NCBI RefSeq assembly: GCF_016026235.1
Contig: NZ_CP065613.1
Direction: 5' to 3' (one strand)
From: Escherichia coli
GTDB taxonomy: Bacteria > Pseudomonadota > Gammaproteobacteria > Enterobacterales > Enterobacteriaceae
Length of the DNA: 64,000 bases
In this document: piece after piece, positions 40,467-40,805 of the stretch
Position numbering within the stretch: the first letter of the stretch is position 1
How the letters are laid out: every line of letters begins with the position of its first letter
Program-made: the position numbers and the translations under genes
The notes under the pieces: model-generated
What the model saw: the letters and a program-made list of their open reading frames with translations, nothing else
What the model was told of the DNA's origin: nothing
The model's database searches: none

Positions 40467-40805
40467 TCTGTCTCCCTTGTATATGGGTTAACCAGATAAC
40501 CACGGGGAGCAGGTACCGGCATCCACGTTACAGACGGTCCCGGCAAAAGTGCCTGACCTGACCCCTATTAGCGGTTACCAGCGCCCCACCAGACCCGGTG
40601 ACATCACCCCCCGGATCATGGACGACTGGGGGCAGTAATCATGCCGGGTCTGGCTGGCTAACACCCCATTATAAGGGGTACGAATAAAGTAACGGGGATT
40701 GACTCGCTTCGCTCGCCCTGCGGGCAGCCCGCTCACTGCGTTCACGGTCTGTCCAACTGGCTGTCGCCAGTTGTCGAACCCCGGTCGGGGCTTCTCATCC
40801 CCCCA
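40467..40805 (-). ncRNA. Candidate bridge-RNA-encoding non-coding region 5' of the IS110-family transposase
   Basis: About 340 bp with no credible ORF, several GC-rich short inverted repeats (e.g. 40720-40732, 40779-40790); position matches where IS110-group elements encode their bridge RNA. Confidence 0.3.

Follow-up and report, generated by a model that had tools for sequence, protein, structure and literature searches.

The closest described system is the bridge RNA of IS621 (Durrant et al. 2024, PMC11208160; Hiraizumi et al. 2024, PMC11208158), an insertion sequence (IS) of the IS110 family. This RNA of 177 nt comes from an element whose left end is long and whose right end is short; the left end encodes it. 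It folds into three stem-loops, the first at the 5′ end, the second binding the target and the third the donor. Within each of these two binding loops, the left half-site appears in sense on the 5′ strand and the right half-site in antisense on the 3′ strand, with the left target and left donor guides (LTG and LDG) as sense copies of the left half-sites and the right target and right donor guides (RTG and RDG) as antisense of the right half-sites (PMC11208160); a handshake guide has been described as well (PMC11208158). The target is a REP-type (repetitive extragenic palindromic) site with a CT core. Here we describe the corresponding RNA of ISEc20 (IS110 family, IS110 group), inserted as a single intact copy in the ycdU-serX-ghrA region of Escherichia coli, within a 64-kb stretch of contig NZ_CP065613.1 (the window, to which all positions refer; (-) marks the minus strand). 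Positions 40503-40679(-) very probably encode an IS110-type bridge RNA of ∼175–190 nt, within the 227-nt left end of the element.

The existence of a bridge RNA in ISEc20 is already known, because Durrant et al. (2024) list a left-end RNA for ISSfl4/ISEc20 and because the NCBI family name for such recombinases is “RNA-guided transposase.” The entry (“ISSfl4, LE, IS110, ISEc20;ISSfl4” in Supplementary Table 5) concerns the same element cluster and places the bridge RNA in the left end by covariance models; in the part of the table concerned, the rows give only the bridge-RNA end, and not the guides, targets or structure. What is new are the exact coordinates, the assignment of the guides, the combination of a poly-C target with a target loop that hardly varies, and the distinction between this RNA and the native RtT repeat. 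The literature on ISEc20 itself consists of genome-survey mentions only. For the IS1111 group, Siddiquee et al. reportedly described in 2024 the seekRNA, an IS-encoded RNA that pairs with target and donor and whose gene is said to lie past the recombinase, in the right end of elements that have long subterminal inverted repeats. The pairing principle is the same in ISEc20, with the RNA in the left end.

The organization of the element is that of the IS110 group, with a long non-coding left end before the ATG (227 nt, 40467-40693), a right end of 25 nt past the stop codon (39245-39269), and a recombinase with DEDD (PF01548) and Tnp (PF02371) domains. A first-pass annotation, made from the letters of the window, had proposed that a bridge RNA is encoded 5′ of the recombinase, in an interval of ∼340 bp with no credible open reading frame (ORF), and had noted that ∼25 bp follow the stop codon at the other end. 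The proposal is borne out by covariation, by a custom covariance model and by matches between guides and DNA, and the short right end is as described; no ORF of at least 40 amino acids (aa) lies wholly inside the upstream non-coding stretch. The interval itself overshoots by 112 nt, because the alignment of copies and empty site ends the element at 40693. That observation was thus only partly right, since its extent and the hairpins it cited (see below) were wrong, though the long 5′ non-coding end is real.

The homologue set comprises 80 loci from one-genome-per-species contigs, of which 60 distinct left ends (from Proteobacteria and Actinobacteria) were aligned. The RNAalifold consensus consists of two long stem-loops with internal loops, preceded by a 5′ hairpin; the two stem-loops contain 46 pairs, 19 of them with compensatory changes, and 96.3% of the pair cells are paired. 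Compensatory cells number 153, against 42.5 ± 8.6 in column shuffles (0/500 at the observed level) and 15–28 when the partners are slid by 1–3 columns. These compensatory changes show that selection acts on RNA pairing and not on the DNA sequence; they maintain the basal helices of both stem-loops across two phyla. Helix 1 (alignment columns 54–71 with 123–139) defines the target-binding stem-loop (TBL), with 15 pairs, 7 of them compensatory, and 98% of cells paired; helix 4 (columns 142–157 with 220–233) defines the donor-binding stem-loop (DBL), with 12 pairs, 7 compensatory, and 94% of cells paired. A hairpin is found at the equivalent 5′ place in the homologues, variable in sequence and length. 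The single-sequence fold has −98.3 kcal/mol (z-score −2.1), with the 5′ hairpin present in the minimum-free-energy structure. A covariance model (R1) was built from 58 homologues, leaving out the window and its closest relative, and run over the whole window; its match at 40503-40661(-) (151.8 bits, E-value 1.2e-29, full model length) is the sole strong one in the 64 kb. RNAalifold also pairs the C5 run with the G6 run, and the left donor guide with the right one; covariation is almost absent from these apparent helices, and in each case the two strands are better understood as guides for one and the same duplex.

In the donor loop, the right end is present in sense and the start of the left end in antisense. 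Over 8 nt, the left donor guide is identical to the right end at 378/400 positions in 50 homologues; with the loci permuted, agreement drops to 352.3 ± 2.9, and the observed 378 was reached in 0/10000 permutations. In the GGGAC, GAGGC and GGAGC variants, guide and right end change jointly. The other strand of the loop is the right donor guide, GUAACGUGG, which is the complement of (C)C.CGTTAC; its reverse complement CCACGTTAC matches the first bases of the left end, (C)GTTAC (40689-40693), and the adjacent C. This guide may pair discontiguously, with a bulged U, as in IS621, and its segment GUAACGUGGAU is almost invariant across the 60 homologues. Fold prediction and a search for guide segments against the element ends, both suggested in the first-pass annotation as checks, thus came out in favor of its proposal; conserved structure and covariation are present and a conserved ORF is not, either result to the contrary having been considered fatal there.

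In most copies, the right junction GGGG-CA-CCCCCC is the same as CACCCCCCGG, the reverse complement of the right guide segment of the target loop. The dinucleotide UG that follows the right target guide on its 3′ side is the complement of CA, the final two bases of the right end, in essentially all members, and its position and logic are those of the handshake guide of IS621. Among 30 distinct ISEc20 left flanks (from genomes and metagenomes), all 30 end in C4–C8, with G at −1 in 14/30 and T at −2 in 14/30; most right flanks start with C6. In the most informative homologue, L075 of Arthrobacter sp. S39, the loop is rewritten into GACGCUCU and UGAGAGUG (UGAGAG), and the flanks are rewritten to match it (ACGCTC before the IS and CTCTCA after it, with the right junction CACTCTCA). 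Family-wide, the four bases 5′ of the C-run match their own guide at 69/176 positions, against 58.4 ± 4.9 after permutation (193/10000 reach 69). At the family level, the target loop is thus supported by universal C-run flanks, by the L075 pair and by flank matching.

Several observations weigh against the bridge-RNA reading. At the serX site, the guide match is confined to the C7 run: 0/4 positions 5′ of the run match the guide (CAAT vs. CUG...), and TC follows the run where the guide expects GG. The left donor guide has no clear core-binding bases, and in the window its U stands where the right end has C, allowing a G-U pair at best. An Rfam 15 scan of 38900-41200, with E-values up to 10, returned no bridge-RNA family; it returned tRNA, sub-threshold RtT and sX4, and chance leader and MicC matches on the serX terminator. 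The covariance-model search that the first-pass annotation had recommended is therefore negative with Rfam and positive with R1. The integrated copy has no promoter-like σ70 site upstream of the RNA. Finally, of four registers compared for the core dinucleotide, none fits all the evidence, which consisted of C counts at three sites with empty references, the non-homopolymer homologue L075, the promoter spacing, and the GGGGCA-C-GTTAC junctions described below. Two of the registers take CC as the core, the right end being GGGGCA in one and GGGGCAC in the other; the other two suppose one C at the junction and have CA or AC as the core.

The gain in C residues is +3 at serX (C7 into 4 + 6) and +3 or +4 at the L092 site. 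These two gains fit an IS reading CGTTAC...GGGGCA with a duplicated 2-nt CC core, and the same register gives L075 a CT core at both junctions. At the yfdF-fadL site, K-12 has C9 and the gain is only +1. The right donor guide is contiguously complementary to CACGTTAC, which fits a single-C junction, as do the optimal promoter spacer and the three GGGGCA-C-GTTAC junctions. A recent preprint argues that IS110 integration proceeds mainly by top-strand transfer, which would let the two junctions retain different cores. As for circle or tandem junctions, L029 is the only one of the collected loci in which GTTAC directly follows a right end. A lone T often breaks the flanking C-run beside the IS (CCCTC/GTTAC, CCCTCC), at the left junctions of L011, L023, L034, L040 and L049 and at the right junctions of L092, L097, L016, L033, L042 and L045. 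The empty sites of L092 are pure C7 or C8 with no T, and the T may have been left behind by the exchanged core.

Compared with IS621, the ISEc20 RNA has nearly the same length and the same order of stem-loops, with the same sense and antisense logic in the loops. The recombinase (398 aa), on the other hand, falls in the IS110/ISBma3/ISSfl4 cluster and not beside IS621, the target is a C homopolymer, the C5 and G6 target guides are mutually complementary over more than 2 nt, and no match to the core is evident in the left donor guide. The first loop, poorly conserved according to Durrant et al., is almost invariant across the 60 ISEc20 homologues. ISBma3 (Burkholderia, ∼80% aa identity) and IS110 (Streptomyces) share with ISEc20 the left-end RNA, the C-run flanks and the right end ATAGGGGCA; they differ in the 5′ hairpin, in the basal-stem sequences and in the left-target-guide bases 5′ of the C-run. 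The assignment thus offers a worked example for the IS110-proper clade, including a candidate handshake dinucleotide.

Since only the C-run of the window site matches the guides, ISEc20 is best described, from flanks and guides, as a poly-C seeker with a weak flank preference. The target loop is near-invariant (C5/G6) across two phyla. Three independent right junctions, in L029 (1914-1960), L096 and L127, read GGGGCA-C-GTTAC, with a right flank that resembles the IS left end; this target class fits the right donor guide and not the right target guide. For L097, L119, L096 and L127, the search for empty sites led to flanks that are rearranged or situated within other mobile elements; only the right flank of L127 is informative, its native site (L154) reading GGCCCCCGTTACCAAT. 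One could imagine, although we consider it rather improbable, that the target loop is hard-wired in the IS110/ISBma3/ISEc20 clade, with poly-C seeking that uses little flank information and GTTAC-type targets captured via the donor-binding guide. Among the targets would then be the acceptor and T arms of tRNAs, with their C-rich 3′ strand, as well as RtT pseudo-copies, and the latter could serve as harmless decoys; donor-guide capture of left-end-like targets would be a recognition mode not described for IS621.

Two other explanations of the left end have to be weighed. The left end could be only a 5′ untranslated region (UTR) and recombination site, the helices regulating translation or stability of the recombinase messenger or binding a protein as DNA, with no guide RNA. 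The RNA does lie directly upstream of the ribosome-binding site, where it could influence translation, and for ISPpu9 (IS110 family) small RNAs have been proposed to modulate recombinase expression (as cited in a passage of PMC11208160). However, the compensatory changes show selection on RNA pairing and not on DNA, and the loops carry sense and antisense copies of the IS ends and of the target, which co-vary with the ends and flanks and which a purely regulatory leader would not need. The recombinase, moreover, belongs to a family named for RNA guidance (NF033542). We regard a leader without guide function as very improbable.

The structured signal noticed in the first-pass annotation could also stem from the RtT repeat native to the serX locus and be unrelated to the IS. 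For 40694-40805, the outer 112 nt of the flagged interval, this holds: the stretch is native chromosome that adjoins serX uninterrupted in IS-free genomes, where the loci (at least 99% identical and collinear with both flanks of ISEc20) are annotated “RtT sRNA” (small RNA) next to “tRNA-Ser.” The inverted repeats quoted in that annotation (40720-40732 and 40779-40790) do exist, and both lie in the RtT repeat, outside the IS. The Rfam RtT model (RF00391) matches 40683-40818 with 32.3 bits, below its gathering score of 45, because the IS splits the repeat unit; the last 12 nt of the unit resume beyond the IS at 39233-39244. The inner part, 40467-40693, is not explained by RtT. It travels with ISEc20 to unrelated sites, and its own conserved structure is present in homologues with no RtT nearby, whereas the RtT stretch is not carried along to the other insertion sites. 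As a full account of the signal, RtT is thus unlikely, and a bridge RNA in the left end remains the preferred reading. RtT repeats belong to the native chromosome, where they follow tRNA genes, and they are not guide RNAs; at serX, the repeat is only the insertion target.

The RtT unit has a period of 181 bp and occurs in one to three tandem units after serX depending on the strain (L001, L002, L153; 40694-40862 and 39169-39244 in the window), every unit closing with a copy of the last 19 nt of tRNA-Ser (AATCCCCCCCTCACCGCCA). A 76-nt direct repeat brackets the IS (39169-39244 and 40802-40877). An origin as target duplication, or as attL/attR of an integrase with the tRNA 3′ end, was rejected in view of the 181-bp RtT period in IS-free strains; by this comparison, the direct repeat is the tandem periodicity of RtT.

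The boundaries come from an alignment of the window, the copies L003 (in a prophage) and L004 (in the yfdF-fadL interval), and the site as it stands empty in strain H10. The other ISEc20 copies cease to match the window at ∼40697. Because of the homopolymer at both junctions, the boundary is uncertain by up to 3 C. Read on the recombinase strand, the left junction is ...GAGTCAATCCCC/GTTACTTTATTCG, the right junction AACTTAATAGGGGCA/CCCCCCTCACCGCCA, and the empty site GAGTCAATCCCCCCCTCACCGCCA. According to this alignment, the insertion target is the C7 run in the tRNA-Ser pseudo-3′ end that closes the RtT repeat downstream of serX. The first-pass annotation had expected the target loop to be complementary to the serX terminator or 3′ end; complementarity extends to the C7 run of the pseudo-3′ end, and not to the terminator or the flanking bases. 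The coordinates of all features are collected in Table 1.

Table 1. Features of ISEc20 and of its insertion site in the window
Feature	Position	Strand	Basis
ISEc20, unique sequence between the flanking C-runs	39245..40693	-	Three copies and empty site aligned
Recombinase gene, 398 aa	39270..40466	-	NF033542 match; PF01548/PF02371 via 99% identical cluster
Recombinase 5′ UTR with ribosome-binding site AAGGGAGA	40467..40502	-	Direct reading; 3′ of covariance-model match
Bridge RNA core (target- and donor-binding stem-loops), predicted	40503..40661	-	Covariance model R1; covariation
5′ hairpin ACCCCUUAUAAUGGGGU	40663..40679	-	Minimum-free-energy fold
Target-binding stem-loop (TBL)	40588..40654	-	Helix 1 covariation
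Left target guide ACUGCCCCC, sense of left target	40628..40636	-	C-run flanks; L075 rewritten pair
Right target guide CCGGGGGG, antisense of right target	40607..40614	-	Right-junction match
UG, candidate handshake guide 3′ of right target guide	40605..40606	-	Complementary to right-end CA
Donor-binding stem-loop (DBL)	40505..40586	-	Helix 4 covariation
Left donor guide UAAUAGGGG, sense of IS right end	40562..40570	-	Identical to right-end TAATAGGGG (39247-39255)
Right donor guide GUAACGUGG, antisense of IS left end	40523..40531	-	Reverse complement CCACGTTAC
Left donor = IS right end TAATAGGGGCA	39245..39255	-	ATAGGGGCA kept in homologues
-35-like TTGACA, right end	39259..39264	-	TTGAC(A/G) in nearly all homologues, 5-6 nt upstream of ATAGGGGCA
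-10-like TACTTT, left-end start	40686..40691	-	TAC(T/C)(A/T)T conserved in homologues
Left part of target C-run, CCCC	40694..40697	-	Copies and empty-site alignment
Right part of target C-run, CCCCCC, then TCACCGCCA = tRNA-Ser pseudo-3′ end	39239..39244	-	H10 empty site AATCCCCCCCTCACCGCCA
Native RtT sRNA repeat, outside the IS	40694..40818	-	Annotated RtT at homologous place in K-12, KLY, H10
serX, tRNA-Ser(GGA), intact	40863..40950	-	ARAGORN; Rfam tRNA 53.8 bits

With respect to expression, the ends of ISEc20 carry a -35-like box on the right and a -10-like box on the left, as in IS621, and a junction promoter has been reported for IS110 elements (PMC11208160). The joined right and left ends read TTGACA-N(16+x)-TACTTT, with 9/12 matches, where x is the junction C count; the predicted σ70-like promoter forms only upon joining of the ends. 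By analogy with IS621, excision or copy-out would join the ends and unite the two boxes, so that the RNA could be transcribed; the RNA would bind the recombinase, and the DEDD/Ser recombinase would exchange strands at a short core in or beside the C-run. A perfect TATAAT is present at 40668-40673(-), in the loop of the 5′ hairpin, with GATAAT at that place in proteobacterial homologues; the integrated copy has no suitably spaced -35 for it.

The recombinase matches NCBIfam NF033542 (“IS110 family RNA-guided transposase”) with 239 bits, for a curated cutoff of 140, and PF01548 and PF02371 are present on a protein cluster 99% identical to it. With 39100-40960 as query, megablast against 5,426 complete E. 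coli genomes found copies 99.5%–99.7% identical over the central ∼1460 bp, a near-identity across the whole element; they are annotated “IS110-like element ISEc20 family transposase” and scattered over many unrelated sites. At the serX-RtT site, ISEc20 occurs in 0/5,426 of these complete RefSeq genomes. One metagenomic copy is identical to the window copy, most others differing at 3–13 of 1449 positions, and the window left end is the commonest ISEc20 left-end variant. The absence of the element from this site in the complete genomes, together with these identities, suggests that the insertion at serX resulted from a recent, strain-specific transposition.

Recombinase relatives of ∼80% identity occur in Burkholderia (ISBma3), Ralstonia and Duganella, and relatives of 70%–78% in Microbacteriaceae and Arthrobacter. 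Between Beta- or Gammaproteobacteria and Actinobacteria (Microbacteriaceae, Micrococcaceae), the recombinases are 70%–82% identical and the left-end RNA can be aligned (L005-L084). This identity and the alignable RNA across phyla point to a recent cross-phylum spread of the element family. One homologous locus comes from a Sporosarcina (Firmicutes) assembly.

For annotation, the importance is modest: the boundaries of ISEc20 are fixed, the bridge RNA is separated from RtT, and the 76-nt repeat is explained.

About one-third of the ISEc20 copies from metagenomes (L086 and 22 other loci) have an IS3-family end, TGAACCGCCCCGGGAATCCTGGAGACTAAA (IS629/IS1203-like), inserted in the left end at nucleotides 61/62. 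These are equivalent to 40632/40633 of the window, exactly where the left target guide enters its C-run, and such an interruption would destroy the bridge RNA. The copies L014, L030 and L079 are 5′-truncated, and the truncation falls precisely on the C-run (left target guide) or on the G-run (right target guide), the sequence upstream being unrelated; these truncations may come from rearrangement or from self-targeting at the guide-encoding, target-like DNA.

The genuine serX 3′ end has the identical 19 nt and yet is intact, ISEc20 having hit the pseudo-end instead of the same sequence in the real gene; the RtT repeat would thus be a harmless decoy target, since the real serX was spared. The serX-type terminator copies at 39196-39217 and 40829-40850 are one base apart: the distal copy has a perfect stem (GGGC), and in the serX-proximal copy the GAGC leads to a G-U pair on the transcribed strand.
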